Part shown: positions 1-52,092 of the stretch, one piece after another
Layout of the letters: every line of letters begins with the position of its first letter
Position numbering within the stretch: position 1 is the first letter of the stretch
From: Alphaproteobacteria bacterium
GTDB taxonomy: Bacteria > Pseudomonadota > Alphaproteobacteria > CAAHEQ01 > UBA3637
Length of the DNA: 58,808 nt
Reading direction: 5' to 3'
Assembly (NCBI GenBank): GCA_045598925.1
Contig: JAZRVC010000001.1
Location: forward strand, 1 to 58,808
The notes under the pieces: model-generated
The model's input: only the letters and a program-made list of their open reading frames with translations
The model's database searches: none
What the model was told of the DNA's origin: nothing
Program-made: the position numbers and the translations under genes

Positions 1-345
1 GATGCCACCACAGATGCCCGTGCATTAGTTCCTGCGTTTGTGGGTAAAACATACCTTAATAAGACCATGAACTGGTGGAGTGCGCATAACTGGTGTTTAG
101 CACAAGGTTATACATTGATGTCTGAATCAAGTGCGGGTACATCGGGTTCGGTTGGTTTAAAAGCGCTTGCTTATGCTGTGAATGAAAGTTCTACGAAAGG
201 TGGCGGCGTTTGGTTGGAAGACGCCAGTACAAGTTCAACTACATATTCTTGCTACGTATACTACGTGTACAGTGATGGTAGTGTGTACGTCAGCCCTCGC
301 AACGGCGACGGCGGCGGCAGCTACCGTCCTGTTTGTAGTGGGTAG
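1..345 (+). CDS. C-terminal part of a secreted protein with a C-type-lectin-fold (CTLD/DUF1566-like) domain; the 5' end lies outside the window
   Basis: Frame 1 is open from nt 1, with no stop before the GTG at 40. MNWWSAHNWCLAQGYTLMS aligns with MNWWSANNWCQAQGKHLAS of the 8706..9983 product. VWLED and the terminal Cys fit the CTLD pattern (W-x-x-A-x-x-x-C ... WIGL-like ... C). Confidence 0.6.
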   Translation, partial: DATTDARALVPAFVGKTYLNKTMNWWSAHNWCLAQGYTLMSESSAGTSGSVGLKALAYAVNESSTKGGGVWLEDASTSSTTYSCYVYYVYSDGSVYVSPRNGDGGGSYRPVCSG

Positions 346-352
346 GTTTTCT

Positions 353-428
353 CGCTTTTTCCTGTTGTTTTTTAACATTTTGGACAGGAAAACACCCCTT
401 GGATTCACCACCCAAGGGGTGGCTTTTA
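353..428. repeat. 75-nt double-hairpin module, copy 1; its second hairpin looks like a bidirectional intrinsic terminator
   Basis: Hairpin 1: TTTTCCTGT (357..365) pairs with ACAGGAAAA (384..392). Hairpin 2: CACCCCTTGG (393..402) pairs with CCAAGGGGTG (412..421), flanked by T/A runs. The module is near-identical to 10321..10397, with about 4 differences. Confidence 0.75.
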
Positions 429-437
429 CACTTCCCC

Positions 438-521
438 GTCATTCTGAAGACGACAGCCGAAGAACCCATAGATCCTTCGCGTTCGCTCAGGATGACACAA
501 AGGGGAAAAGCTCAGAATGAC
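438..521. repeat. REP/MITE-like palindromic unit (438..496, 59 nt) plus an orphan right arm (511..521)
   Basis: The unit reads GTCATTCTGAAG...CGAAGAACCC-ATA-GATCCTTCG...CTCAGGATGAC. Outer and inner arms are mutually complementary. It has the same 59-nt architecture as 8751..8809. Confidence 0.7.
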
Positions 522-529
522 GAAAACAG

Positions 530-3500
530 TTATGCTTTTTGAATATCAAAAGTAATAGCGCTGTCGCCCAGTTCTTCCGACTTTTCAAAAGGCTTATCCG
601 ATTCATCAAAACGAATCGCCAAAACCTGATCCATCATATAGGTTTTATGCTCACTTAAGGCTTGTTTGATTTGTTCGGATGTGGTTTGATAAACCAAACT
701 AATTCTATCCGATACATCAAAGTCTTTGTCTTTGCGCATTTGTTGAATCATACGCACAAAGTCGCGGGCAATCCCTTCACGTTCCAATTCCGGACGAATC
801 GTCGTATCCAACTGAACAACCGCTGTATTATCGGATAAAGGTTGTCCGGATAGACCTTCTTTCATCGTCAAACGCAATTCAAATTCATCAGCATTTAAGG
901 TTTGTCCACCGATGGCCAAAGTGCCATCAGCATTTAAAGCCCATTTTCCTTGCTTATTAGCGGCCATAATCGCACCCATGGCTGGGCCCAAGCGTTTACC
1001 AATCAGCGGGGTCTTTAAATACAAGAACTTTGTGGCCACAGATTCCACATCTGTATTTAGGACAATTTCTTTCACATTGACTTCATCTTTCATCATTTCC
1101 ATAAAGTCCGCCAAAGTGTTGGCTTTTTCGCCCGCAATCGTCATTGAGGCCAACGGCAAGCGGTTGCGCAAGTGGTGTTCTTCACGGATTGATTTGGCTG
1201 TGGATGAAATAGAACGGACAAAGTCCATTTGGGCTTTTAATTCTGTTTCGTCTTGAATAGCGCTGACATCCGGCCACAAAGCCAAATGCACGGACTTTTC
1301 ACCCGTGAGCCCCTTATAAATATAATCCGCCATAAAGGGTAAAAGTGGCGCCACAATCTTGGCTGTATCCACCAAGACCGTGTAAAGCGTATCAAAGGCC
1401 GCTTGATCTGTGCCATCCCAGAATCTTTCACGCGACCGACGAATATACCAGTTGTTCAAGATATCCAAGAAAACACCGATTTTTTCGCAAGCCGCCGGCG
1501 TATCATAGGCCAGCATTTCGGCTTTGATTTCATTGGATAAATCTTTTACTTTTGCCAAAATATAACGATCCAACACGTCCGAAGAAGTGTTTGTCATCTT
1601 GGCTTGTACCCCTTCCGCATTCGCATACAAACAGAAGAAGTAATACGCATTCCACAAAGGCATAAGGGCTTGGCGCATGGTCTTGGCCACTTCTTTACCT
1701 TGATAGTCCATACAGACGTTGCCACCATGGACAATCCCCGAAGAAACCAAAAACCAGCGCATAGCATCTGAACCTGATTGATTCAAAATCACATAAGGAT
1801 CGGGGTAGTTGCCCAACTTTTTGGACATCTTAACACCGCCTTCGGCCATGACCAAACCCGTCACCATACAATGCTTAAAGGCGGGTTTATGGTGTAAAGC
1901 CGTCCCTAACACATGCAAAGAATAGAACCAACCGCGTGTTTGGTCTACGCCTTCCACAATGAAATCAGCGGGGAAGTGATTGTCAAACCATTCTTTTTTT
2001 TCAAACGGATAGTGAATTTGGCCTTCGGGCATAGAACCTGATTCAAACCAACAATCAAACACATCCGGCACACGGCGCATCATGGTCTTGCCACTTGGGT
2101 CATCCGGGTTCGGATAGACCACTTCGTCAATCATCGGGCGATGTAAATCTTTGACATCCACACCTGAAGCCGCTTTAATTTCCGCCAAAGACCCAAAAAC
2201 GTCTGTGCGGGGGTAGGCGGGGTTATCTGATTGCCAAACAGGCAAGGGCGCTCCCCAAAAACGACTGCGTGAAATAGACCATTCACGGGCGCCTTCTAAC
2301 CACTTACCAAAGCGACCATCTTTAATATGTTCGGGTGTCCATTCAATCCCTTGGTTGAGTTTAACCAACTCATCACGGAACTTGGGCACATCCACAAACC
2401 AACCACTCATAGCTTTGTAAATCAGCGGCGTATCTGTGCGCCAACAATAAGGATAAGTGTGGGTAATTTGTTCTTTTTTCACCAACAGGCGATTTTCTTT
2501 GAGCCATTCAATTACATCTTCATTGACGTCAAAGACTTGTTTGCCTTGATACATAGGCACTTCGGCGGTAAAACAACCCGCTTCATCCACGGGACACACA
2601 ATCGGAAAGTCAGGATTGTGCGCGCGGCACACATTAAAGTCGTCCGCACCAAAGCCAGGGGCAATATGCACGATACCTGTACCGTCTTCCACAGACACAA
2701 AATCCCCCGCCAACACACGGAAACAGCCCTTATCTTTCAAATTCGCGAAGAAAGGATACATCGGGGTATAACTCATCCCCACAAACTCTTGACCTTTCAT
2801 GGTGCCAACTTGGGTCGCGTTGGTCAGTTGCTTTTCATAGCGTTTTTTCAGGGCTTCAGCCAAAACATACTTTTGCCCGTCTTCTTCCATAATCGCATAA
2901 TCAATATCCGCCCCCACAGCCAACATCAAGTTGCTGGACAATGTCCAAGGGGTAGTGGTCCATACCAACATCTTCATCCCGTTTTCCAAGGTGAACATAA
3001 TGGTGATGGCTGTATCGGTTTTATCACGATAGGCTTGCGCCACTTCAAAGTTAGATACCGTTGTTTGCGCCGCCCATGAATAAGGTTGCACACGGAAATC
3101 TTGATAGACCAGACCTTTATCATAAAGGGCTTTAAAATTATGAATCACCGCTTCCATAAAAGGTAAATCCATGGTGCGGTATTCTTGTGAATCATCAATC
3201 CAACGACCGATTCGGTGAAACAAGTTCTTAAAGACGCCGGAATATTTTAAAACGTCTTGACGACAATAGTTGTTAAAATTCGCAACGCCATATTCTTCAA
3301 TGGCTTTATGTCCCGAAACGCCCAATGCTTTTTCGGCATTCATTTCGGCAGGAAGTCCATGGCAATCCCAACCATAGGGGCGTTCCACTTTTTTACCCAA
3401 CATTGTTTGAAAACGAGCCACCGTGTCTTTGATGTAGGAAACAAAAATATGTCCATAGTGAGGTTGACCGTTAGCAAACGGAGGGCCATCATAAAAAACG

Positions 3501-3640
3501 AATTCATCTCCGTTTTTACGGGCATCTTTTACCACTTCAAAAATTCGTTCATCATCCCAAATCTTTAAAATATTTTCTTCCATTTCGGAAAAGTTCATTT
3601 TTGCGTTCAGTTCGGGATAGAATTTTTGTTTATCAGACAT
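530..3640 (-). CDS. ileS: Isoleucine--tRNA ligase, long type-2 form
   Basis: 1036-aa ORF with the class I HIGH-type motif (PHYGH), a KMSKS loop (KMSKKLGN) and a large CP1 editing insertion. There is no C-terminal Cys zinc knuckle. Confidence 0.95.
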   Translation of the reverse strand: MSDKQKFYPELNAKMNFSEMEENILKIWDDERIFEVVKDARKNGDEFVFYDGPPFANGQPHYGHIFVSYIKDTVARFQTMLGKKVERPYGWDCHGLPAEMNAEKALGVSGHKAIEEYGVANFNNYCRQDVLKYSGVFKNLFHRIGRWIDDSQEYRTMDLPFMEAVIHNFKALYDKGLVYQDFRVQPYSWAAQTTVSNFEVAQAYRDKTDTAITIMFTLENGMKMLVWTTTPWTLSSNLMLAVGADIDYAIMEEDGQKYVLAEALKKRYEKQLTNATQVGTMKGQEFVGMSYTPMYPFFANLKDKGCFRVLAGDFVSVEDGTGIVHIAPGFGADDFNVCRAHNPDFPIVCPVDEAGCFTAEVPMYQGKQVFDVNEDVIEWLKENRLLVKKEQITHTYPYCWRTDTPLIYKAMSGWFVDVPKFRDELVKLNQGIEWTPEHIKDGRFGKWLEGAREWSISRSRFWGAPLPVWQSDNPAYPRTDVFGSLAEIKAASGVDVKDLHRPMIDEVVYPNPDDPSGKTMMRRVPDVFDCWFESGSMPEGQIHYPFEKKEWFDNHFPADFIVEGVDQTRGWFYSLHVLGTALHHKPAFKHCMVTGLVMAEGGVKMSKKLGNYPDPYVILNQSGSDAMRWFLVSSGIVHGGNVCMDYQGKEVAKTMRQALMPLWNAYYFFCLYANAEGVQAKMTNTSSDVLDRYILAKVKDLSNEIKAEMLAYDTPAACEKIGVFLDILNNWYIRRSRERFWDGTDQAAFDTLYTVLVDTAKIVAPLLPFMADYIYKGLTGEKSVHLALWPDVSAIQDETELKAQMDFVRSISSTAKSIREEHHLRNRLPLASMTIAGEKANTLADFMEMMKDEVNVKEIVLNTDVESVATKFLYLKTPLIGKRLGPAMGAIMAANKQGKWALNADGTLAIGGQTLNADEFELRLTMKEGLSGQPLSDNTAVVQLDTTIRPELEREGIARDFVRMIQQMRKDKDFDVSDRISLVYQTTSEQIKQALSEHKTYMMDQVLAIRFDESDKPFEKSEELGDSAITFDIQKA

Positions 3641-3730
3641 TGTTTGTTCCTTTCATAAATAACAATGTCCTTTATTATGCCAAAAAGACCTTTAAAAATC
3701 AAGAAAAAATTGGTGGAAAACCACAGAATT

Positions 3731-4276
3731 TTAAGCCTTTAAAAGCTCAATTTTAACAAATTCAGGATTATGGGTAAGTTTTACAGACATTTTTTTCTCT
3801 TTCAATTGCCCGATAAGCCATTGTGCTTCCAGTGTTTCAACCTCAAAGGATTTGATTGTCTTTCCATTTAAAATATCTTTAATGTTTTCTTTTATTATCA
3901 AGTTATTAGACTTTAAAATTAAAGTATTATTTGAATATAAAATATCCCCACCGCCCGCCACAATTTGGATACCCAGAGCGACTAAAGACAACTCTAAACG
4001 AGTGGCTATTTTACCGGAAAAGGTTATTTCTGTTCCAAAAGTATTTAAAAAGTCATAGACAAGCCCGGAATCAATAGATTTTGTTTCAGCCCCAAACAAA
4101 GCCCGATAAAATTTTAATCGTGCCATCAACATTTGAGTGTTTTTTTTCAGCATTTTGGGGGCTTCTGAAACAAAAGAAGGGTCTATTTCCATCAGTTCGG
4201 CGGTGCTGGAAAGTGCCCCGATTCCTCCGGCTAAATCATGGGAAATTTTAACGGTAATTGCCTCTGAAAAATTCAT
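3731..4276 (-). CDS. ChpT-like histidine phosphotransferase
   Basis: KISHDLAGGIGALSSTAELMEIDP ... RLKFYRALFGAE matches the ChpT pattern (cHDxxxPxxAixxGLELL ... FxRxAFGA), with the putative phospho-His at residue 13. The ATGA overlap with the upstream sucD-like gene indicates translational coupling. Confidence 0.6.
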   Translation of the reverse strand: MNFSEAITVKISHDLAGGIGALSSTAELMEIDPSFVSEAPKMLKKNTQMLMARLKFYRALFGAETKSIDSGLVYDFLNTFGTEITFSGKIATRLELSLVALGIQIVAGGGDILYSNNTLILKSNNLIIKENIKDILNGKTIKSFEVETLEAQWLIGQLKEKKMSVKLTHNPEFVKIELLKA

Positions 4277-5145
4277 TTAGTGCCTCTCTTTATTGTGCAA
4301 CCGATTTTATCCACCGAATCAATACAAACAACACCGGCTTTTTTTAATTCGGCATTTTTTTTGCTGATAACATCCGAAAATAATACAGATTTCATCCCCA
4401 ACAACGGAAATTTATCAGACCGAACCAGCGTTTTTCCGGGAATATAAGAATAAATTTTCTTTTTCGTCCTTATTTTTTTCAGGTAAGAAGCCAAATTATA
4501 TTCCAATTGTCCATGCACTTGTCCGATAATCAAAATACGATTCGTTTTTTTATCTTTTAACAGGGCTTGAACCACAGGAATAAAATCAGTGGCAATCAAG
4601 TGATCTGTGCCCAAAGTAATACATTTAGAAATCCCAATTTTTTTTTCTTTTAATTGTTGAATGGCTTCAAAAACCAACGATCCCGAACGACCAACGATTG
4701 CTGTATCACCCGATTGAAACAGATGAGTGGGCAGGGCGCCCGTTAAAACCTCATCCACAGAAACAATACCGCTGCTGGAAGGTCCCAACAAAATGACACC
4801 ATATTTTTGGGCCTGCCATTTCATTTTTAAGGCATCATGCATGGGCACGTGTTCGGTTGTACAAATAATCAATGGAATTTTTGCTTTTGCGGCAGATACC
4901 ACATCATCCAAAGCGTGTGTCGGTGTGGAAAAAATAACACTGATTTGAGGATGATATTTTTTTATCGCTTGCGAAATATGTGCAAATACGGGAACCCCTA
5001 AAATATTTTTATGACGTGTCTGATTACTAATCCCCGCGACAATATTTGTCCCGTAATCTAATGATTTTTTCAGGTGTAATAAACCTGATTCACTGGTGAT
5101 TCCTTGAATTAAAACAGGTGTTTTTGAATCGGGAAGAATAAACAT
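4273..5145 (-). CDS. Succinyl-CoA synthetase alpha-subunit-like protein lacking the catalytic histidine (probable pseudoenzyme or neofunctionalised paralog)
   Basis: Collinear with SucD: VLIQGITSESG vs ICQGFTGSQG, GRSGSLVFE vs SRSGTLTYE, and a C-terminal AELKKAGV vs AALEAAGV. The MGHAGA phosphohistidine loop reads LGMKSV, and GIGGDP reads TLGTDH. Confidence 0.7.
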   Translation of the reverse strand: MFILPDSKTPVLIQGITSESGLLHLKKSLDYGTNIVAGISNQTRHKNILGVPVFAHISQAIKKYHPQISVIFSTPTHALDDVVSAAKAKIPLIICTTEHVPMHDALKMKWQAQKYGVILLGPSSSGIVSVDEVLTGALPTHLFQSGDTAIVGRSGSLVFEAIQQLKEKKIGISKCITLGTDHLIATDFIPVVQALLKDKKTNRILIIGQVHGQLEYNLASYLKKIRTKKKIYSYIPGKTLVRSDKFPLLGMKSVLFSDVISKKNAELKKAGVVCIDSVDKIGCTIKRGTK

Positions 5146-6284
5146 TACGATTTCTCCTTTAATTCATGTTTTAGTTCATTGACGGCCTTAGACATCTGCG
5201 ACACAATTTTAAAGGGCACCTTGGATAAAGTTAAAAGTTTTCGGCCTTCGTCAGCGTTTAATCCCGCCAGTCTCACAATCACGGGAACCCCCACAGGGAT
5301 TTCCACCGCGGCATCCAAAAGCCCTTGCGCAATAACTTTACAACTGGTGGTTCCACCAAAGATATTCACAAAAATCGCATCTACATTTGGTTCGGCCAAA
5401 GCCAAACGCATGGCAGTTATAATGGATTTGACATTGGGTTCCGTTCCGACATCTAACAAACAGGCCGCTTTTTCCCCGTGGGTTTGTAGTAAATCCACGC
5501 TAGCCCATCCCAGACCAATCCCATTGACTAAACAGGCAATATTGCCATTGAATTTGGTATAACGAAACGCATTTTTTTTCGCTAAAGCCTCGCGTTCATG
5601 ACCTAATTTAATTTCACGACAACGCACTAATTCGGGATAGCGGAATAAAACATCCGGATCAAAAATCAAACGGGCATTTTCAATAATTAAATTATTGCCC
5701 TGACGAATTACAGGATTTAATTCAATCGCCATCATTTCATATTTTTTAAACAGACGATATGTTTTATCCATTAAATTCCAAAAATTTTTATTCAATAAAG
5801 TATTTTTTAAATTTAAAATTTTATTGATGTCTTTTTTGACCTGAGTATCCAAAGTCAAATCTTGAAAAAAGAATGAAAAGATTTCATTTTTATTATTTTG
5901 TATAGACAAAGACAGACCTGATTTTTCAAAATCCACGCGTAAAGCAATAGAACAAAACAGGGGTAATTCCAAGGCCTGTTCTATATAAAGTCTTTGGATA
6001 GTTGTTGAAAATTTTTCATTTCCGTTTTCAAAGGGGAAGCCCAAAATTTCTTTGGCTTTTTGTTCCACTTCCTGCGGGGAATGAGCTAAATATTTTTCGG
6101 TCAACTCTTCATGTCGGTAGGGTTGGAAAGAGGTCATCAGTTGGGGCTTTACCCAAAAAGAATCCCCCTTGATGTCCAAAGCAATTGCACAGGCCTCTTC
6201 GTTGGTATAAGCAACCTTTCCCTTTAATACAGGGAGTCCTGCTTCTTTCAAAATGCTTTTAACATAATATTCGTGTAATTCCAT
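5145..6284 (-). CDS. Succinyl-CoA synthetase beta-subunit-like protein with a degenerate ATP-grasp region
   Basis: MELHEYYVKSILKEAGLPV matches MNLHEYQAKQLFARYGLP. GNIACLVNGIGLGWASVD and VNIFGGTTSCK match the SucC C-terminal domain. The glycine-rich AGGRGKAGGV segment is absent (VKPQLMTSFQPYRHEE). The stop overlaps the sucD-like start (TAATG). Confidence 0.7.
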   Translation of the reverse strand: MELHEYYVKSILKEAGLPVLKGKVAYTNEEACAIALDIKGDSFWVKPQLMTSFQPYRHEELTEKYLAHSPQEVEQKAKEILGFPFENGNEKFSTTIQRLYIEQALELPLFCSIALRVDFEKSGLSLSIQNNKNEIFSFFFQDLTLDTQVKKDINKILNLKNTLLNKNFWNLMDKTYRLFKKYEMMAIELNPVIRQGNNLIIENARLIFDPDVLFRYPELVRCREIKLGHEREALAKKNAFRYTKFNGNIACLVNGIGLGWASVDLLQTHGEKAACLLDVGTEPNVKSIITAMRLALAEPNVDAIFVNIFGGTTSCKVIAQGLLDAAVEIPVGVPVIVRLAGLNADEGRKLLTLSKVPFKIVSQMSKAVNELKHELKEKS

Positions 6285-6336
6285 TTTCCCCTCTTTTTTA
6301 GGGTTATATTAGCGAATACCCAAGAAACTGTCAAGA

Positions 6337-7200
6337 TTATTTTTTACCGATTTCCTTCAATCGTTGCCATAAAGATTTTGCCACTTCTTTTTTAATTAAA
6401 GGAAGTAAAAAAGTATTCAACTCTTTTTCCAATTCTGCCATATCTGTGTAGGTTTTAATTTTTCCGTTTTTAATCAAAGACACGGCACCTGTTTCTTCCG
6501 ACACGACCAGGCATAAAGCATCCACGTTTTCGGTAAGTCCGATTGCCGCCCGATGACGCGTCCCGTAATGCCAAGTAAGAGAAAGATCCTTTGACAAAGG
6601 CAGAATCAATCCGGCCGAAATAATGCGTCCGTTTTTAATCAACACAGCTCCGTCATGCAAAGGGGTATTGATGAAAAATAAATTGATTAAAAGTTCCGAA
6701 GAGAGCAGGGCGTCCAAGCGAAATCCCGCGTGCGTCACACTGGCCACAGGTTCTTGATTTTCAAAGACCAAGAGGGCCCCCGTTTTTGTCTTACGCCAAT
6801 AGGCAATTGCGGGAATCAGAATATCAATTAAATTTGCTTTGATTTTCTTTTTTTGGGGTTGGGTTAAAGACACATTATTTCCCAAGCGGGTCATCAAACG
6901 GCGCAATTCGGGTTGGAACAACACAACGCCGGACAGAATCAATAAAAGAATTAAATTCCTGATCATCGCGCTTAAAATCCGCAAGTGAATCAATGAGCAA
7001 CATTCCGCCACAATCCACAAAGAGAAGAGGAAAATAACAATGCCTTTAACTGTTTTTTCGGCGGGCGAATCTTTAATAATTTTAGTATAAAAGAACAGCA
7101 CGCAGCCGATTACAATCGTCATTTGTCCCAAAAAACTAGCCCAAGACAAACCTGTATCGCCAAAAAAGTTTTGTAAATATTGTCGTAAAGAATCAATCAT
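6337..7200 (-). CDS. cdaA: Membrane-anchored diadenylate cyclase (CdaA/DacA type, DisA_N domain)
   Basis: Three N-terminal hydrophobic helices are followed by PLHDGAVLIKNGRIISAG, GTRHRAAIGLTE and VVSEETGAVSL, the hallmark DisA_N motifs. Confidence 0.85.
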   Translation of the reverse strand: MIDSLRQYLQNFFGDTGLSWASFLGQMTIVIGCVLFFYTKIIKDSPAEKTVKGIVIFLFSLWIVAECCSLIHLRILSAMIRNLILLLILSGVVLFQPELRRLMTRLGNNVSLTQPQKKKIKANLIDILIPAIAYWRKTKTGALLVFENQEPVASVTHAGFRLDALLSSELLINLFFINTPLHDGAVLIKNGRIISAGLILPLSKDLSLTWHYGTRHRAAIGLTENVDALCLVVSEETGAVSLIKNGKIKTYTDMAELEKELNTFLLPLIKKEVAKSLWQRLKEIGKK

Positions 7201-8705: not shown

Positions 8706-9983
8706 ATGAAAAAAAATAAAAATATGTTAAACGGATATACCACAACCCCCGTCATCCTGAGCGGACGCGAAGGATCCATGGATTCTTCGGCTAACGCCTT
8801 CAGAATGACAACAGAAGGGGGTCGGTCTATGGTTGAAATGCTGGGGGTACTGGCCATTATCGGATTATTGTCCAACGGGGGAATCGCGGGGTATAAGAAC
8901 GCGATGAACAAACACGCGGCGAACGAAATCATCAATGAAGTCAATAAACGGGCTGTCAGTGCCGCGGGACAATTATTGTTAGGGAAAGACTTCAATTTGG
9001 CCGAATTTGGCAACGCCACCGTAAAAGGATGTACAATTGCCAAAAAAGACGGCGTAGCGACGGGGAGTTTTGGCCTGACCGTTACAGGTATGGATAAAGG
9101 CGTATGCAAACAATTATGGGATATGTCTAAAGATTGGTCTGTTCCTGTGGATGTAATGCTCAATTCCAACGATACCTGTGGGGAAACAAACACTTTCACT
9201 TATTTGTTTGCGAACGATTTATCCAAGAATGTTGCCGAAACACCAATCAGTTATAAAACATGTGAGTCCGGTTGTGATACACGGGCGGAAACCTGCGATA
9301 CAGCCACAGGGAAATGCGTGAGTGCTTGTACTCAACCCGGTTTCTATTATAGTTCATCTGGCTGTAAGGAGGTCACGAACACGTTGAGTTGTTCCAAAGA
9401 GGGGGATACCGCTTGTCCAGGTAACTGCTGTGATACAAAGACCATGATGTGTGTCAGCGCATATTATGATGGCTCTAACTATCATTGTCAATATGATAAA
9501 ATTAAATGTAATAAGAATTCAGATTGTCATACAGGTCAATTCTGTTTGGTGAGTGGAAATTCCAATAGCCCTTCCGTTGGCCGCTGTACAGATGTATCAG
9601 AGGTTGGTGGTTATAGTATCCCAAGTGATGCGAATGCGTTTTTCAAGAATCTAGTACGTAGTCAACAACGTATGAATTGGTGGAGTGCGAACAACTGGTG
9701 TCAAGCGCAAGGCAAGCATCTGGCCAGTTTAGCGGATTTAGGCATCGTAAAACCTGGTTCTTGTTATGTCAAGGGAACCAGTTCGCCATGCGACTATACG
9801 GATAGTACGAAATGGACAGAAGCAAATTCTTATTATAATGCTTTAACGAGCGCCTTTGGTAATGAAAGTTATCTATGGACATCTGATAGCTCTTCTTCCT
9901 CCGGCGCGTCCAGCGTGGCCCTTAACTATGGTTACGTGAACGCCAGTTATCGCGAGGACATCCTCTATGCTCTGTGTAGGTAG
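8706..9983 (+). CDS. Prepilin-signal (class III) Cys-rich protein with a C-terminal C-type-lectin-fold domain; the start may instead be 8805
   Basis: G|RSMVEMLGVLAIIGLLS fits the prepilin cleavage/methylation motif (Gly at -1, Glu at +5, then a hydrophobic helix). More than 20 Cys occur in CxxxxDCxxGxFC-type modules. The C-terminus reads MNWWSANNWCQAQGKHLASLADLG...YLWTSD...YALCR. GGAG lies 5 nt upstream of the ATG at 8706. An alternative ATG at 8805 would give a 6-aa leader. Confidence 0.7.
   Translation: MKKNKNMLNGYTTTPVILSGREGSMDSSANAFRMTTEGGRSMVEMLGVLAIIGLLSNGGIAGYKNAMNKHAANEIINEVNKRAVSAAGQLLLGKDFNLAEFGNATVKGCTIAKKDGVATGSFGLTVTGMDKGVCKQLWDMSKDWSVPVDVMLNSNDTCGETNTFTYLFANDLSKNVAETPISYKTCESGCDTRAETCDTATGKCVSACTQPGFYYSSSGCKEVTNTLSCSKEGDTACPGNCCDTKTMMCVSAYYDGSNYHCQYDKIKCNKNSDCHTGQFCLVSGNSNSPSVGRCTDVSEVGGYSIPSDANAFFKNLVRSQQRMNWWSANNWCQAQGKHLASLADLGIVKPGSCYVKGTSSPCDYTDSTKWTEANSYYNALTSAFGNESYLWTSDSSSSSGASSVALNYGYVNASYREDILYALCR
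8751..8809. repeat. REP/MITE-like palindromic unit (59 nt) lying in frame within the 5' end of the 8706 ORF
   Basis: The unit reads GTCATCCTGAGCGGACG-CGAAGGATCC-ATG-GATTCTTCG-GCTAACGC-CTTCAGAATGAC. Its terminal AATGAC supplies the alternative ATG at 8805. Confidence 0.7.
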
Positions 9984-10006
9984 GGTTCCTTCGCTTCGGC
10001 TCTCTT

Positions 10007-10315
10007 GTCATTCTGAACTCGTTTCAGAATCCATTTATGGGTCAGCGTGGAGAGTTGAGACGAATTTTAATGGTTCGTGTCAACGTGCCAATGGATTCTC
10101 GGGTCAAGTCCGAGAATGACAAAGAAAGAGAATGTCATTCCTTGACGAACGATAGTGAGGAGATAAGGAATCTCAATCAGATGCCTTATTTCGCTAACGC
10201 TCAAGGCATGACAATAACCCCAACCGTCATTCTGAAGGGGCAATGCCCCGAAGAATCCATGGATCCTTCGGTCGTATAAACTCCCTCAGGATGACAATAA
10301 AAAGAGAGTCATGAC
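10007..10315. repeat. Array of at least 4 REP/MITE-like palindromic units of the same family
   Basis: Units lie at 10007..10032 and 10093..10120 (two half-units separated by about 60 nt), 10134..10212 (GTCATTCCTTGA...TCAAGGCATGAC), and 10226..10295 (GTCATTCTGAAG...CGAAGAATCC-ATG-GATCCTTCG...CTCAGGATGAC). A GTCATGAC core lies at 10308..10315. Confidence 0.75.
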
Positions 10316-10320
10316 AAAAA

Positions 10321-10397
10321 ACGCTTTTCCTGTTGTTTTTTTAACATTTTGGACAGGAAAACGCCCCTTGGATTCACCACCCAAGGGGTGCCTTTTA
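10321..10397. repeat. 75-nt double-hairpin module, copy 2; bidirectional terminator between the lectin gene and queH
   Basis: Near-identical to 353..428. The differences are T-run lengths and two substitutions. CCCCTTGG pairs with CCAAGGGG and has T-rich flanks on both strands. Confidence 0.75.
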
Positions 10398-10928
10398 TTT
10401 TGGCTTACATCCACAATAATTTTGGCGGTATAAATTTAATTCTTTGGCGAGATGTTCGCTGCGTTCCAAACGGCCTTTTTTACGCCAATTTTCGGTGTCG
10501 TAGGGGATGTTTTCTTCGGCTTGCACTTTTAATCCCGCGCGACAGACCTGATCAAAATCTTTAAACCGCGAAATACCCAAAACCGATGAAATCCGCGTAA
10601 AGCCATTTTCTTTGGCATAGCGGGCTGTTCTTTTTAAACGAAAATAAAAGCATTTATCACACCGTTTGCCTTTTTCCGGCTCATCTTCCAGACCTTTTAC
10701 AAACTCCCGCCACTTATCGGGCGTATATTCCAAATCAACAAACGGAACCCCGTATAAATCGCACACGCGCCGATTTTCCTGTAAACGCTTTTGATATTCC
10801 ACCGTGGGTTGAATGTTGGGGTTAAAAAATAACACTGTAAAATCCACCCCTTGTTTTTTTAAGCTCTCTATTACCCCGACCGAGCAGGGCGCACAGCACG
10901 ACAACAGCAACAGTTTATCTTTTTTCAT
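10395..10928 (-). CDS. queH: Epoxyqueuosine reductase QueH (DUF208 family)
   Basis: LLLSCCAPCS N-terminal Cys cluster, FFNPNIQP, KGKRCDKCFYFRL and a C-terminal YCGC. Size and motif order fit QueH. Confidence 0.8.
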   Translation of the reverse strand: MKKDKLLLLSCCAPCSVGVIESLKKQGVDFTVLFFNPNIQPTVEYQKRLQENRRVCDLYGVPFVDLEYTPDKWREFVKGLEDEPEKGKRCDKCFYFRLKRTARYAKENGFTRISSVLGISRFKDFDQVCRAGLKVQAEENIPYDTENWRKKGRLERSEHLAKELNLYRQNYCGCKPK

Positions 10929-20256: not shown

Positions 20257-20955
20257 ATGGAGAAAAATATGATTATTTTTGCATTATGGGGAGTTGTTTT
20301 CGGTTTTATTCTTCCATTTATCGCGGGACGATTTGGTAAGTTGGTTCCCGCCGACCCCGGAAGTATAATTTTACGCCTGTTCCATTTTCCAAAAATCCCC
20401 GCAAAAAAAGACCTTCAACGCTATTTATTATGGCAACGGCTCAATAAAAAACTTTATTACTGGGGTGTTTTTTGGGCCATCATGTGCGCATGTCTTTTTA
20501 CAGGTGTTTATCTGGTCATTCCCCCTGTTTTACAGACTTTTTCCTGTGTTTTTATTTGGGTAGTGTGCGCTTGTATGGTCATAGATGCTCTTTATTGGCT
20601 TTTACCTGACTTTTTCACTCTCCCCCTTTTGATGTTGGGTATTTTATTTGCCACAAAATCCTCCGATTTTTCTTTGGAAATGGCCCTGACGGGTGCCATT
20701 GGCGGCTATCTAGTTTCCGTCCTATCCGTGATGGTACTGGCGTTTTCACCTCAAAAAGAACTCGGATGCGGGGATGTCAAAATGATTACGGCCTTGGGCG
20801 CGTGGTTGGGAATTGTGGGTTTAAGCATAACCCTGGTGCTGTCTTTTATCTTTTTTGTGATTTTTTCCATTTTAGATTTACATAAGAAAGGAGCCTATGG
20901 TCCGGCCTTAGGAGCAGCCGCTATCATCAGTTTTTTTCTGATACATATGAAATAA
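20257..20955 (+). CDS. Prepilin (type IV leader) peptidase, A24 family
   Basis: Polytopic membrane protein with two Asp motifs: LLPDFFTLPLL and GCGDVKMITALGAWLG. No N-terminal CxxC domain is visible. Confidence 0.8.
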   Translation: MEKNMIIFALWGVVFGFILPFIAGRFGKLVPADPGSIILRLFHFPKIPAKKDLQRYLLWQRLNKKLYYWGVFWAIMCACLFTGVYLVIPPVLQTFSCVFIWVVCACMVIDALYWLLPDFFTLPLLMLGILFATKSSDFSLEMALTGAIGGYLVSVLSVMVLAFSPQKELGCGDVKMITALGAWLGIVGLSITLVLSFIFFVIFSILDLHKKGAYGPALGAAAIISFFLIHMK

Positions 20956-48107: not shown

Positions 48108-49868
48108 CTATTTATTATAAAGCGGACGCGCTGTATAATGTGTATGCAATAATTCTTCTGATTTTTCGGACAAAGGCTTACCCAAAAATTCTTTATATAA
48201 CTTTTGAATATCCGGATTTTGATGAGAACAACGTAGTTTAGATTGTCTGTCATCTGCTTTTAATCCCGCTTGACGTGCTTTACGCACCGCATCAGTCACG
48301 CCCAAAGGTTGTCCGCCACCACCGATACAGCCACCGGGGCAAGCCATGACTTCAATAAAGTCATAAGGCGATTTTTCGCCATTGGCTTTGGCACGACGCA
48401 CTTTTTCCAAAACAGTCGCCACATTTTTAATTCCATGCGCTACAGCCACATGAATTTCTTTGTCGGCGATTTTAACTGTCATTTCCTTGGCGCCTTCATT
48501 CAAATTAGTAATTTGGTCAAATTCCAAATTGTCCAATTCTTTACCAGTAATCAGGTAATGGGCAGTACGCAAAGCAGCCTCCATCACACCACCGGAGAAT
48601 CCAAAGATTGTGCCGGCACCCGTATAGGCACCCAAAGGTGAATCGGCCGTTTCATCTGGAAGGGCGGTAAAATCAACACCCATTTGTTTAATCATCCGAA
48701 CCAATTCACGGGTTGTCAAAGACACATCAATGTTTTGAACACCATCGTGGAACATTTCTTTGGAACGTTTAATTTCCCATTTTTTCGCTGTACAGGGCAT
48801 AATGGACACAACGACCATATCTTCGGCCTTAACACCCACTTTATCAGCATAATAGGTCTTAGCCAAAGCGCCCAACATCGCCTGAGGTGATTTTGCCGTT
48901 GAGAAATTGTCAATCATATCATGATCCACTTTTTCCAAGTAATCCACCCAAGCAGGACAGCAACTGGTAATCAAAGGCAAGCGTTCAGGTTCAGTTGTAA
49001 AGCGTTTCACGAACTCACTGCCTTCTTCCATAATGGTCAAATCAGCCGCAAAGTTGGTATCAAAGACAGCCTTAAAGCCCATACGACGTAAAGCCGCATA
49101 GATTTTTCCTGTCACTAAATCACCGCTTTTATAACCAAAGGCTTCACCCAAAGCCACACGAACGGCTGGCGCAATCTGAACCACACAATACTTTGTGGTG
49201 TCTTGCAAATAATTCCAAACAGTGGCGGTTTCATCCACTTCGGTAATTGCCCCTGTGGGACAGTGTGCCGAACATTGCCCGCATTTAATACAGGGAGAAT
49301 CATTCAAAGGTAATCCACCCGCCGGGGCCATATGTGTATTGATACCACGTTGCAAAGAACTTAAAGCATAGACGTTTTGCACATTTTGACAAACTTCCAC
49401 ACAACGGCCACATTGAACACACTTACGCGGGTCAATTTGAATACAACCGGTGGAACTATCCACAGGCATTTCTTTTTCGGAAGGTGTAATGTTGGCAAAA
49501 GCATCTTTATCCAAAGCAAATTCTTTGGCCAAGTTTTGCAATTCGCAGTTTCCGTTTTTCAAACAGGACAAACAATCATTGGGGTGACGTGATAAAATCA
49601 ATTCCACGATTGTCTTACGGGCCTTCATAATATCGGGATCACGTGTAATGACCTGCATCCCTTCGGCCACGGGTGTACAGCACGAACGCAACATCCGTCC
49701 ATTGATTTTCACGATACAGACACCACAGGCTGCCGTTGCATCCAAATCGGGGTGCTTACACAATGTCGGCACAATGATTTGAGCCTCACGACAAGCATCC
49801 AATACACTTGTTCCTTCGGGAACTTTTACTTCCATTCCATCAATTGTTAAAGTAATCATTGTTAGCAT
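48108..49868 (-). CDS. hydA: [FeFe]-hydrogenase catalytic subunit (HydA, group A3-like)
   Basis: N-terminal 2Fe-2S and 4Fe-4S ferredoxin modules. H-cluster motifs are present: TSCCPAW (L1), MPCTAKKWE (L2) and EVMACPGGCIGGGGQP (L3). A small-subunit-like tail follows. An alternative start lies at 49859. Confidence 0.9.
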   Translation of the reverse strand: MLTMITLTIDGMEVKVPEGTSVLDACREAQIIVPTLCKHPDLDATAACGVCIVKINGRMLRSCCTPVAEGMQVITRDPDIMKARKTIVELILSRHPNDCLSCLKNGNCELQNLAKEFALDKDAFANITPSEKEMPVDSSTGCIQIDPRKCVQCGRCVEVCQNVQNVYALSSLQRGINTHMAPAGGLPLNDSPCIKCGQCSAHCPTGAITEVDETATVWNYLQDTTKYCVVQIAPAVRVALGEAFGYKSGDLVTGKIYAALRRMGFKAVFDTNFAADLTIMEEGSEFVKRFTTEPERLPLITSCCPAWVDYLEKVDHDMIDNFSTAKSPQAMLGALAKTYYADKVGVKAEDMVVVSIMPCTAKKWEIKRSKEMFHDGVQNIDVSLTTRELVRMIKQMGVDFTALPDETADSPLGAYTGAGTIFGFSGGVMEAALRTAHYLITGKELDNLEFDQITNLNEGAKEMTVKIADKEIHVAVAHGIKNVATVLEKVRRAKANGEKSPYDFIEVMACPGGCIGGGGQPLGVTDAVRKARQAGLKADDRQSKLRCSHQNPDIQKLYKEFLGKPLSEKSEELLHTHYTARPLYNK

Positions 49869-51583
49869 CCTTTCTTTTCTGTTTTATCAAGCAAGAGGGC
49901 TTCATATTCCTCAGGGAAGTACTTCATTGTTGAAAGCACCGGATTCGGGGACGTTTGTCCCAAACCGCACAGAGCCCCTTTTTGCATGGCAGAGCCAATT
50001 TCTTTAATCTTTTCCAAATCTTTATGGGTTCCTTTACCTTCGGCCACTTTGGTCAAAAGTTTCAGCATTTGATAGCCCCCTAAACGACAAGGCGCACATT
50101 TACCGCAGGATTCATCCACCGTAAAGCCCAAATAGAACTTGGCAATTTCCACCATAGAATCATCAGTATCCATTACAATCATACCACCTGATCCCATCAT
50201 TGAGCCAATCTTTTTTAATTCTTCATAACACAAAGGCAAGTTGAGTTCCTTGGCCGGAATCACACCGCCCGAAGGACCACCGGTTTGGACAGCCTTAAAC
50301 GGCTTACCTGTTGAGGTCCCACCACCGACTTCTTCCACCATTTCACGAACGGTTGTTCCCATGGGGACTTCCACCAAGCCCGAGTGCTTCACTTTACCGG
50401 TTAAGGCAAAAACTTTCGTTCCCTTACTGGTTTCAGTACCGACGGAGGAGAACCAATCCGCCCCGTTTAAGATAATTTGAGGCACATTCGCCCAAGTTTC
50501 CACGTTGTTGATAATCGTGGGCTTTTGGAATAAACCTTTTTCTGTCGGATATGGCGGACGAGGACGTGGTGTTCCTTTATTGCCTTCCAAAGACATCATG
50601 AGGGCTGTTTCTTCACCACACACAAAGGCCCCTGCCCCATAGCGCAGTTCTGCCATGAAGTTGAAGTCTGTTCCAAAAATATTTTTACCCAAGATACCGG
50701 CTTTTTTGGCTTGTTTAATGGCTAATTCCACACGTTCCAAAGCCAAAGGATATTCAGCCCGAACATAGAACCAACCCGCAGTGGCCCCTGTGGCATAAGC
50801 GGCAATCATCATCCCTTCCAACACGGCGTGAGCACCACCGCCCAAAATACAAGAATCCATATAGGCACCCGGATCGCCTTCATCCCCATTACAGATAATG
50901 AACTTTTCACCATCCACCAAGGGGGCTTTGGACAACAATTCCCACTTTTTGCCCGTGGGGAATCCGCCACCGCCACGACCACGAAGGCCCGACTTTTTAA
51001 TTTCATCCAAAACTTGTTCCGGTGTCATTTCAAACAAGCATTTCATCAACGCTTGATAACCACCGTTGGCTACATACTCGCCCAAATCTTCGGGGTCAGA
51101 ATTTCCCAAATGTTTCAACACCACACGACGTTGTTTGGTAAAGAACGGTAAATCCATTGACAATTCTTTTTCGGCTAAATGAGAGGCTAATTTAAGTTCC
51201 GCCTCAGGCTTACCCAACAAAGGTTTAATATGTTGTTCAACAATTAAATGGGCCATATCAGCCGTCATTTCTTTATACAAGAAGGGTTTACGCCCTTTTA
51301 TTTCAATACGTGTCATCGGACCCGCGGCACAAAGTCCCATACAGCCCGTGGCCACCAAACGAACTTTATCTGTCAATCCTGCGGTTTCCAAAGCAGCCTT
51401 AAAGGCTTCATAGACCGCTTGACCGCCACCCGAATGGCAACTAGTCGCATTACAGGTAAAAATAGTCGCTTCATACTGGGCATTTTTTGTTTCAAAATCC
51501 TTACCCATTTGCAAAAGTTTATCCTTTTGCATACGACCGACAGCCTTTAATTTTTCAATTTGTTCTTTTGTGAGTTCAACCAT
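49862..51583 (-). CDS. hydB: NuoF-like flavoprotein subunit of the hydrogenase (HydB)
   Basis: N-terminal thioredoxin-like 2Fe-2S region (CNATSCHSGG...GCMGLCAAGP), GRGGGGFPTGKKW FMN/NAD site and ESCGKCAPCR 4Fe-4S. The start was set at the ATG at 51583, which is preceded by AAGGAGGG and lies 1 nt after the hydC stop. Confidence 0.9.
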   Translation of the reverse strand: MVELTKEQIEKLKAVGRMQKDKLLQMGKDFETKNAQYEATIFTCNATSCHSGGGQAVYEAFKAALETAGLTDKVRLVATGCMGLCAAGPMTRIEIKGRKPFLYKEMTADMAHLIVEQHIKPLLGKPEAELKLASHLAEKELSMDLPFFTKQRRVVLKHLGNSDPEDLGEYVANGGYQALMKCLFEMTPEQVLDEIKKSGLRGRGGGGFPTGKKWELLSKAPLVDGEKFIICNGDEGDPGAYMDSCILGGGAHAVLEGMMIAAYATGATAGWFYVRAEYPLALERVELAIKQAKKAGILGKNIFGTDFNFMAELRYGAGAFVCGEETALMMSLEGNKGTPRPRPPYPTEKGLFQKPTIINNVETWANVPQIILNGADWFSSVGTETSKGTKVFALTGKVKHSGLVEVPMGTTVREMVEEVGGGTSTGKPFKAVQTGGPSGGVIPAKELNLPLCYEELKKIGSMMGSGGMIVMDTDDSMVEIAKFYLGFTVDESCGKCAPCRLGGYQMLKLLTKVAEGKGTHKDLEKIKEIGSAMQKGALCGLGQTSPNPVLSTMKYFPEEYEALLLDKTEKKGC

Positions 51584-51584
51584 C

Positions 51585-52061
51585 TTATTTACCCTCCTTT
51601 GCACGCCATTCATTGATAATGCCTTTGACCTTATCGGGCGTCATTTTACCATAGGTTGTACCATTGATCACCATCACAGGTGCCAAACCGCAACAACCCA
51701 AGCAACGCACCACTTGAATATAAAACAAACCATCATCAGTAGTTGTCCCCGCGGGCACACCCAATTCTTTTTCCAATTCGGCCAACACACTGGCGCCATC
51801 TTTAATATGACACGCTGTCCCATCACACATAGAAATAATATACTTTCCGGGGGCCTTTAATTTAAAGTAGTTATAGAACGTCAAGCATTCATAAATTTTC
51901 GCCATAGGAATCCCCAAACTTTGACCTAAATACAAGGCCTCATCCCAAGGAACATAACCAAATTGTCCCTGTAATTCATGCAACGCCATAATCAGGCAAC
52001 CACGTTTGCCTTGCCATTTGCGGATGATACCATCCACTTTTACTTTGTTTTCTTCGTTCAT
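51585..52061 (-). CDS. hydC: NuoE-like 2Fe-2S subunit of the hydrogenase (HydC)
   Basis: CLIMALHELQ...CDGTACHIKDG...VRCLGCCGLAP is the thioredoxin-like 2Fe-2S pattern. The start at 52061 is preferred (AAGGAAG Shine-Dalgarno); the alternative is 52076. Confidence 0.88.
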   Translation of the reverse strand: MNEENKVKVDGIIRKWQGKRGCLIMALHELQGQFGYVPWDEALYLGQSLGIPMAKIYECLTFYNYFKLKAPGKYIISMCDGTACHIKDGASVLAELEKELGVPAGTTTDDGLFYIQVVRCLGCCGLAPVMVINGTTYGKMTPDKVKGIINEWRAKEGK

Positions 52062-52092
52062 ATAACTTCCTTTCATAAAAAATGATTTTTGC

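Follow-up and report, generated by a model that had tools for sequence, protein, structure and literature searches.

A histidine-less succinyl-CoA synthetase-like gene pair in one operon with a ChpT-family gene in gut Alphaproteobacteria: a candidate partner of the CtrA phosphorelay

ChpT is the histidine phosphotransferase which carries phosphate from CckA to CtrA and CpdR. It has hitherto been regarded as a passive carrier between these proteins (CckA and CtrA), with control of the relay attributed to the kinase (DivL/DivK, cyclic di-GMP) and to proteolysis. Homologues of metabolic enzymes are known as regulators of the alphaproteobacterial cell cycle, and KidO and GdhZ of Caulobacter couple the metabolic state to the cell-cycle machinery. 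The subject of this work is a three-gene locus, sucC'-sucD'-chpT', found in a stretch of 58,808 nucleotides (contig JAZRVC010000001.1, positions 1 to 58,808; the whole stretch is called the window below) from an Alphaproteobacteria bacterium. Two genes related to those of succinyl-CoA synthetase are followed there by a gene of the ChpT family. KidO and GdhZ differ from the SucC'D' pair in that they target FtsZ or DivJ and not ChpT, are not operon-coupled to a phosphorelay gene and have an unrelated fold. That sucCD-like genes without the catalytic histidine stand in one operon with chpT had been noticed from the letters of the window alone; the observation was confirmed, and it recurs well beyond the window.

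Succinyl-CoA synthetase (SCS; SucC is the beta and SucD the alpha subunit; E. coli 1SCU/2SCU, pig 2FP4) is a member of the nucleoside diphosphate (NDP)-forming acyl-CoA synthetase superfamily. In this enzyme Glu208-alpha stabilises and positions the phosphohistidine at site I, and Asn199-beta and Asp213-beta are, with Glu197-beta, the Mg/nucleotide ligands. The SucC residues (Glu197, Asn199 and Asp213-beta) are numbered after E. coli, and the alignment columns come from the database sequences compared. The locus in the window comprises the following features.

5145..6284, minus strand: sucC', putative succinyl-CoA synthetase beta-like pseudo-enzyme subunit, 379 aa (Pfam, NCBIfam, AlphaFold2 (AF2) model)
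6105..6140, minus strand: codons 49-60 of sucC' (LMTSFQPYRHEE), in place of the ATP-grasp Gly-rich loop HAGGRGKAGGV (alignment with 14 canonical SucC)
5145..5147, minus strand: TAA stop of sucC', the last base of which is the first base of the sucD' ATG (TAATG; read from the DNA)
4273..5145, minus strand: sucD', putative succinyl-CoA synthetase alpha-like pseudo-enzyme subunit, 290 aa (Pfam, NCBIfam, PDB)
4402..4404, minus strand: Leu codon 248 of sucD', aligned with the catalytic phosphohistidine (HMMER alignment to 2yv2 and 2fp4)
4273..4276, minus strand: ATGA overlap of the sucD' stop and the chpT' start (read from the DNA)
3731..4276, minus strand: chpT', compact ChpT-family histidine phosphotransferase, 181 aa (profile, fold)
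4238..4240, minus strand: codon 13 of chpT' (His in ISHDLAGG), predicted phospho-accepting histidine (alignments)

The homology of the first two genes to the beta and alpha subunits of SCS, proposed in the sequence-only reading, is borne out by their Pfam domains, which are the same as in SCS (ATP-grasp_2 and Ligase_CoA in sucC', CoA_binding with 64 bits and Succ_CoA_lig in sucD'), and by their best NCBIfam models, SucC and SucD. The scores nevertheless reach only some 60% of what the curated equivalog models require: for sucC', 226 and 225 bits where the cutoffs are 370 and 376 (NF001913 and TIGR01016), and for sucD', 215 and 218 bits where they are 336 and 353 (NF004230 and TIGR01019). The gene order with its stop/start overlap is equal to that of SCS, and sucD' matches SCS alpha chains of the PDB with an E value of 1e-44. 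The AF2 model of SucC' (predicted local distance difference test, pLDDT, 88.4) has SCS beta chains as all of its top 24 PDB matches, with template modelling (TM) scores of 0.67-0.83, the beta fold being shared at a TM of about 0.8.

Unlike SCS, SucC'D' has no phosphohistidine. In HMMER alignments to solved SCS structures Leu248 of sucD' faces the catalytic histidine (KFPLLG against RMGHAG), in the column of His246-alpha of E. coli. The claim that LGMKSV stands in place of the MGHAGA loop was upheld, and the loss is family-wide: in a MAFFT alignment of 120 sequences none of the 97 clade clusters (P0001-P0097, 38-83% identical to the window SucD') has a histidine in register, while MGHAGA is present in all 23 canonical SucD that came from the same search (P0098-P0120). 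The last histidine of sucD' sits in IIGQVHGQ and the final ~79 residues are histidine-free (about 70 had been claimed). A misalignment hiding the histidine was considered and rejected, because basal MGNIGAIV is in perfect register with MGHAGAII. The histidine of TTEHVPMHD was rejected as a substitute nucleophile, since some canonical SucD have a histidine at that spot too.

Further motifs of the alpha subunit are altered. GEIGG, which contains Glu208-alpha, has turned into GQxHG in the clade (GQVHG in the window); most clade members have Gln at this position, Glu being confined to basal ones. The CoA motif QGxTGxxG has become QGITSxxG in the clade, and QGITSESG of the window, described earlier as an eroded glycine motif, proved to be one Gly-to-Ser change by which part of the CoA motif is gone. 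GPNCPG is replaced by GPSSxG in the clade (GPSSSG in the window) with a change of Cys123-alpha, SRSGTL reads GRSGSL, and VTPGKGG with its PGK CoA-contact motif is lost. The ITE/TTE strand is retained in the window SucD', and a clade-specific conserved motif, SDKxPLLGMKSVLF, occupies the former active site.

The beta-like subunit had been said to lack the glycine-rich ATP-grasp loop, and LMTSFQPYRHEE does stand at its place, TSFQPYRHEE facing the loop in HMMER alignments to SCS structures. GGRG occurs in none of the 120 SucC' clade clusters and DVGGG is replaced in every one of them (DVGGGA reads DVGTEP in the window); NxFGG is retained in 114/120. The ATP-grasp domain has a deletion of ~12 aa. 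Asp213-beta is Asn in the window lineage (ENAR) and still Asp in deeper branches; Glu197-beta and Asn199-beta are kept in the window (ELNPV), with Asn199 variable across the clade. The ATP-grasp half is the most drifted part of the protein (26% identical to canonical SucC and 42% among clade members), and the C-terminal 'site I' domain is the best preserved (39% and 60%, respectively). The former Gly loop (block 51-60, pLDDT 69) is the lowest-confidence stretch of the model. SucC' has a conserved motif of its own clade as well, KLGHEREALAKKNxFRYT.

Judged from sequence and models, SucC'D' is probably a folded alpha/beta derivative of SCS that would be unable to run the canonical reaction. SucC' and SucD' should not be annotated as succinate-CoA ligase, because the defining catalytic features and the curated thresholds failed; NCBI Prokaryotic Genome Annotation Pipeline (PGAP) names of the relatives include 'hypothetical protein', 'ATP-grasp domain-containing protein' and, for others, succinate-CoA ligase. 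It may be asked whether the pair is still an active CoA ligase with another catalytic solution, such as a different nucleophile or acyl substrate. The strong purifying selection described below and the new conserved motifs around the former active site speak for such an enzyme. Nevertheless, the histidine, its Glu partner, the ATP-binding Gly loop and a Mg ligand were lost together, and the equivalog scores are far under the cutoffs. To our knowledge every characterised member of the superfamily (SCS, malate-CoA ligase, citryl-CoA synthetase, ATP-citrate lyase and the ADP-forming acyl-CoA synthetases, ACD) needs a phosphohistidine. An active ligase is thus regarded by us as highly improbable.

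The third gene was identified as a ChpT-family histidine phosphotransferase, atypically short and divergent. The window protein alone is marginal (NCBIfam ChpT E 1e-5, 25 bits against cutoffs of 225-240 for NF046018/NF046025; PDB 4qpj E 0.009) and has no Pfam match; the identity is solid because it comes from the family profile and the comparison of folds, the single sequence being weak. The resemblance to ChpT that had been noticed is confirmed on both sides: the ChpT' family profile matches Brucella ChpT 4qpj with E 8e-9 over nearly the full length and Caulobacter ChpT with E 0.007, and in a PDB comparison of the AF2 model (pLDDT 92.7) the first seven ranks are all taken by ChpT chains (E 6e-12 to 1.5e-10, TMq 0.77-0.83). 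Among true histidine kinases the top match to this model has E ~1e-6 and TMq ~0.5. Pfam PF10090 (HPTransfase) matches 14 of 23 ChpT' relatives, best 2.5e-8. His13 (ISHDLAGGIGA) is invariant in alignments of 23 and 26 relatives and is aligned with the H-box histidine of Brucella and Caulobacter ChpT; the RLxFxRxxFG helix is invariant too.

With the described ChpT proteins (Caulobacter CC_3470, 4FMT/4FPP; Brucella 4QPJ/4QPK) the predicted protein has in common a DHp-like helical hairpin with the H-box histidine and a degenerate CA-like alpha/beta domain that does not bind ATP; the scores of true histidine kinases are poorer by five orders of magnitude. With 174-184 aa the protein falls short of the ~205-250 aa of solved and canonical ChpT, and it is only 15-18% identical to the solved ones. 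In an exhaustive HMMER search with the ChpT' profile a continuum was seen from 174-184 aa up to 200-215 aa, the size of canonical ChpT. Its place as the third cistron of a sucCD-derived operon is an arrangement not seen for canonical chpT. A more distant 211-aa protein of the ChpT family (L113:1328-4827, weak PF10090 match) is encoded just ahead of a protein with an Hpt domain and a kinase of the CheA type, which shows that ChpT-like proteins occur in the context of chemotaxis genes too.

The chain of three genes, with both overlaps, was found on the minus strand as it had been given, and QGITSESG, LGMKSV, LMTSFQPYRHEE, ISHDLAG and FYRALFGAE are all present in the translations. The sucC'/sucD' junction is a 1-base overlap at 5145 (...TCG TAATG TTT...) and the sucD'/chpT' junction a 4-nt overlap at 4273-4276 (...CTA AATGA AT...), and a Shine-Dalgarno-like purine run precedes each of the three starts. 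Translational coupling of the three genes is supported by these features of the sequence and is accordingly treated as predicted. The same junctions are widespread among related loci. The 4-nt sucD'-chpT' overlap is found in 17/21 of them, the remaining four having -14 (twice), -11 and +10, and at the sucC'-sucD' junction 18 of 20 measurable loci show -1 or -4 and two show +1.

A genome scan of species representatives with ChpT' motifs returned 16 loci, all from 'Alphaproteobacteria bacterium' metagenome-assembled genomes (MAGs) of gut and rumen origin from human (Hadza and others), sheep, yak, buffalo and roe-deer, and sucC' and sucD' are directly upstream of chpT' in all 16. The trio is also present on about nine metagenome contigs, with SucD' 61%, 48%, 48% and 40% identical, for example, and in the most basal lineages. 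Across these loci identity falls to 38-40% for SucD' and to ~29% for ChpT', and the trio is always contiguous, so that chpT' is always next to its sucCD-like pair, unlike in SCS loci. Conservation of the gene order in related genomes thus extends to more than 20 independent loci with differing flanks. The upstream flank has cdaA in 11 of the 16 species loci (11-54 nt away, same strand), rho/ankyrin in others and metG in one lineage; downstream, ileS is found in L084, L086, L089, L097 and L108 and not in the other loci. In one basal trio (L111:2854-3210, 3223-3933) the genes are followed by a 118-aa receiver-domain protein, seemingly without the acceptor Asp (..ELVVMCYSV..), and then by a CheR-like methyltransferase.

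Canonical genes behave differently. In the 8 kb on either side of 80 canonical sucD loci (many alphaproteobacterial; drawn from a genome scan on a motif common to all SucD) no ChpT-like open reading frame (ORF) was found, and no sucCD stands beside the four canonical chpT loci of Magnetovibrio/Rhodospirillaceae. Distant ChpT relatives (e.g. L110, 26% identity) adjoin a membrane protein or Hpt/CheA genes, not sucCD. The linkage to chpT therefore appears, on this gene-order comparison, to be specific to the histidine-less sucCD clade. Where genes keep their order across deep divergence and are translationally coupled, a physical or functional partnership of their products is strongly predicted.

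A possible recipient of the phosphate is encoded nearby in the closest relative (L086, Hadza gut MAG CAKQBW01), where a CtrA-type response regulator of 227 aa comes right after ileS (9870-10553, plus strand), 3.3 kb downstream of chpT'. It scores 281 bits with NCBIfam CtrA, the next family giving 170 bits and the curated cutoff of 350 not being reached; it contains the signature LYGGxDEPExKxxDVFxCKxRKK...TVWGRGY, and is 45% identical over the full length to Caulobacter CtrA. Because of this regulator the clade probably has at least a CtrA-type partner for ChpT. A genome scan with the L086 CtrA returned only itself and one 48% relative, the motifs being too specific or too generic, and is uninformative on the other clade genomes. 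At the equivalent place of the window (1-529) there is different DNA with a pilin-like C-terminal fragment and a repeat element, which suggests local rearrangement beyond ileS between the window and L086. In marine Rhodospirillales (L102-L105, Magnetovibrio and Rhodospirillaceae MAGs) a distance of ~5.5 kb separates canonical chpT from ctrA, which is on the other strand; loose linkage of the two genes is therefore not unique to the gut clade.

The genes of the trio appear to be under strong purifying selection. Between the window and L086 the ratio of nonsynonymous to synonymous substitution rates (dN/dS) is 0.09 for sucC', 0.08 for sucD' and 0.10 for chpT', in comparison to 0.07 for cdaA and 0.04 for ileS; in this single pair dS is near saturation (1.4-2.0) and the ratios are rough. 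All three ORFs are intact in every locus examined (>20). Decaying pseudogenes were rejected as an explanation on these grounds, the ORFs being intact in more than 20 loci and dN/dS lying at ~0.08-0.10.

A partnership of SucC'D' with ChpT' is inferred from gene order only. We put at about 0.45, i.e. somewhat short of even odds, the probability that SucC'D' is a repurposed pseudo-enzyme which serves as an accessory subunit or adaptor of the ChpT dimer and modulates the flow of phosphate to CtrA and CpdR. An ordinary alphaproteobacterial SCS would have lost, in an anaerobic gut lineage, its catalytic apparatus (the phosphohistidine, its partner Glu208-alpha, the ATP-grasp Gly loop, one Mg ligand and part of the CoA/phosphate motifs), and SucC'D' would have been kept as a folded alpha/beta pseudo-enzyme. 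SucC', SucD' and ChpT' would be made from one transcript, in a stoichiometry fixed through the stop/start overlaps. SucC'D' might then bind the ChpT dimer, and the remnant ligand pocket, the former CoA/succinate/phosphate 'site I', may tune or gate phosphotransfer to CtrA according to the metabolic state. The sequence-only reading had put forward a metabolite-sensing or scaffolding module that feeds a phosphorelay, and this can reasonably be maintained on the conserved coupled gene order, the purifying selection and the CtrA-type regulator.

Several observations weigh against the adaptor reading. Remodelling of the ligand pocket has been heavy, with changes in about half of the motifs that contact CoA, and the dN/dS values carry the roughness mentioned above. 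CtrA was seen in one relative only and below the cutoff (281 against 350 bits), and neither CtrA nor CckA was found in the window, no search aimed at CckA having been made. No SucD'-ChpT' fusion occurs among the 150 best ChpT'-like representatives, the longest of which has 239 aa. The evidence for the link is entirely positional, and this and the lack of fusions are equally the argument for the view that the genes are neighbours and nothing more: SucC'D' would have an unrelated residual role, in CoA/dicarboxylate binding or a structural one, and chpT' would ride on its promoter by inherited synteny. The overlap of sucC and sucD is in any case ancestral, a 1-nt overlap being present in several canonical alphaproteobacterial loci (ORF end 8001, sucD start 8001), and the clade genomes are gene-dense, the window having many short or overlapping junctions elsewhere. 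It is difficult to reconcile with mere inheritance, however, that both flanks were repeatedly reshuffled and yet the trio, with the 4-nt overlap between sucD' and chpT', persisted even where ChpT' identity is as low as ~29%. Moreover, the linkage coincides with the loss of the catalytic histidine and was unseen with any canonical sucCD (80 loci). Coincidental neighbourhood is therefore considered rather unlikely, but it deserves to be kept in mind.

A more far-reaching alternative is that the histidine is supplied in trans. SucC'D' would keep the site I chemistry (acyl-CoA + inorganic phosphate <-> acyl-phosphate) and His13 of ChpT' would replace the lost histidine of the swinging loop. As a consequence the acyl-CoA pool would load ChpT' and then CtrA, or phosphorylated ChpT' would be drained in reverse, with CckA bypassed or supplemented. 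It fits this idea that the enzyme without histidine is obligatorily co-translated with a partner whose phosphorylatable histidine is invariant and solvent-exposed, and that the nucleotide site (site II), with its Gly loop gone, its deletion and the drifted ATP-grasp half, is the most degraded one, while preservation is best in the C-terminal domain of the beta subunit, from which site I is formed. Still in place are NIFGG, the VNGxGL asparagine and the two 'power helix' N-termini (GRS(G/S)SL, NGIGLG). A precedent exists within the superfamily: in ACD the phosphate goes from a histidine to a second histidine before the acyl site (PMC11494057), and this two-histidine relay makes His-to-His transfer at superfamily active sites chemically feasible. 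In ACD, however, both histidines are on the enzyme and the swinging-loop histidine is kept, in contrast to SucC'D', where the loop histidine is absent and the only candidate is on a separate signalling protein. The ChpT histidine is located on a rigid helix of a four-helix bundle, with no flexible loop, and its reach to the buried site I is doubtful. Site I itself has been touched, since Glu208-alpha, the positioner of the phosphohistidine, is Gln in most members, Cys123-alpha and PGK, a CoA-contact motif, have not kept their canonical form, and DVGGG survives in no member. We hold this scheme to be quite unlikely. If true, substrate-level phosphorylation driving CtrA without CckA or alongside it would be a new way to load a bacterial phosphorelay.

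Basal members of the clade give an indication of how the adaptor candidate SucC'D' may have arisen. Basal SucD' keep TYMGNIGAIV and GEIGG, a loop that is canonical but for one residue, Asn in place of His; in this most basal lineage (MGNIGA/GEIGG) chpT' already follows. Basal SucC' have a recognisable insertion of ~11-12 aa behind the Gly loop (G.F.E..AG..GG.R), as in canonical alphaproteobacterial SucC; in the control set 12 canonical loci have the insertion. Ten are titled Alphaproteobacteria, and of the three that lack a class-level title none belongs to another class. The retained insertion argues for direct descent from an alphaproteobacterial-type SucC, and a horizontally acquired odd ligase was rejected on the same basis. 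Most simply, SucC'D' would be the lineage's own sucCD, first disabled at the histidine and then progressively remodelled, with a linkage to chpT that is probably as old as the earliest stage seen. Of this series the window shows the most derived state. Extant evolutionary intermediates, with His to Asn first and Glu208 and the nucleotide loop lost afterwards, would make it a clear natural example of a whole heteromeric enzyme become a pseudo-enzyme.

In a literature search no paper was found that links ChpT to succinyl-CoA synthetase or to a pseudo-enzyme partner, nor any genome-level description of RF32 gut Alphaproteobacteria. This suggests that a link of ChpT to a former metabolic enzyme is undescribed, and there is a modest chance of something categorically new. 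A dedicated and conserved two-subunit partner of ChpT that comes from central metabolism would point to control exerted on the phosphotransferase itself, and to a direct route by which carbon/CoA status may reach the master cell-cycle regulator. The carriers are widespread uncultured Alphaproteobacteria of human and ruminant guts, the regulation of which is almost unstudied.

The trio is flanked in the window by two genes and a promoter-like site.

6306..6334, minus strand: predicted sigma-70-like promoter, TTGACA-17 nt-TAATAT, between the cdaA stop and the sucC' start
6337..7200, minus strand: cdaA (diadenylate cyclase), upstream neighbour, given as context only
530..3640, minus strand: ileS (isoleucyl-tRNA synthetase, 1036 aa), downstream neighbour, given as context only

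The sigma-70-like site in the 52-nt gap between cdaA and sucC' was the top scorer of the promoter scan (10/12 matches). The scan gave 12 promoter-like sites overall against 10.3 expected by chance, and taken alone it has little weight because the total is close to the chance expectation. The weight of the site comes from the conservation of its -35 box: TTGACA is kept at the equivalent place in the relatives with cdaA upstream (window, L081, L086 and L088-L095) and reads TTGACT in L096. No CtrA box (TTAA-N7-TTAA) was found within 300 bp upstream of sucC' in any locus examined.

The upstream gene encodes a CdaA-type diadenylate cyclase, a synthase of cyclic di-AMP (c-di-AMP), which scores above the equivalog cutoff of TIGR00159 (198 against 189 bits) and has no adjacent cdaR or glmM partner. 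As far as we know, c-di-AMP signalling is unusual among Alphaproteobacteria. SucC'D' could be imagined as a receptor of c-di-AMP or regulator of CdaA, the Rossmann-type former CoA pocket binding the dinucleotide. The closeness of cdaA in 11/16 species loci and a CoA-nucleotide pocket that is remodelled and yet conserved within the clade are in agreement with this. In the deeper-branching L082, L084, L097-L101, L108 and L111, on the other hand, cdaA is not adjacent and the trio is present in all of them, and the conserved promoter-like element lies between cdaA and sucC'. We know of no c-di-AMP receptor with an SCS-type fold, and a role of the pair in c-di-AMP signalling is judged to be very unlikely.

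The 58.8 kb of the window encode no canonical sucCD, response regulator or histidine kinase. Housekeeping genes, an F-type ATPase and a HydABC-type [FeFe] hydrogenase are present, and in a relative pyruvate:ferredoxin oxidoreductase is found nearby. The electron-bifurcating hydrogenase is encoded by three genes at 48108..52076 (minus strand; NuoE/NuoF-like and [FeFe] hydrogenase), and this cluster marks the organism as an anaerobe. All these features fit an anaerobic fermenter for which the full tricarboxylic acid (TCA) cycle is possibly dispensable.

Minor features of the window concern repeats and pilin-like genes. Positions 353-428 and 10322-10397 form a 76-nt direct repeat of 89% identity, and a 59-nt unit at 438-496 recurs in inverted orientation at 8751-8809 (90%), bounded by GTCATYCTGA...TCAGRATGAC. 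These short repeats, which flank pilin-like genes, look like intergenic repeats of the REP/MITE type (repetitive extragenic palindrome/miniature inverted-repeat transposable element). Two proteins, encoded at 40..345 and 8706..9983 (both plus strand), have a common C-terminal 'MNWWSA.NWC.AQG' domain; the second of them is 425 aa long, has a prepilin-like hydrophobic N-terminus (MVEMLGVLAIIGLL) and Cys-rich repeats, and is without a Pfam match at the 1e-5 level. At 20257..20955 there is a gene for a prepilin peptidase. A relative of the clade has, downstream of ileS (L108:8287-10611), three ORFs in a row with mTERF domains, the mTERF family being typical of organelles.

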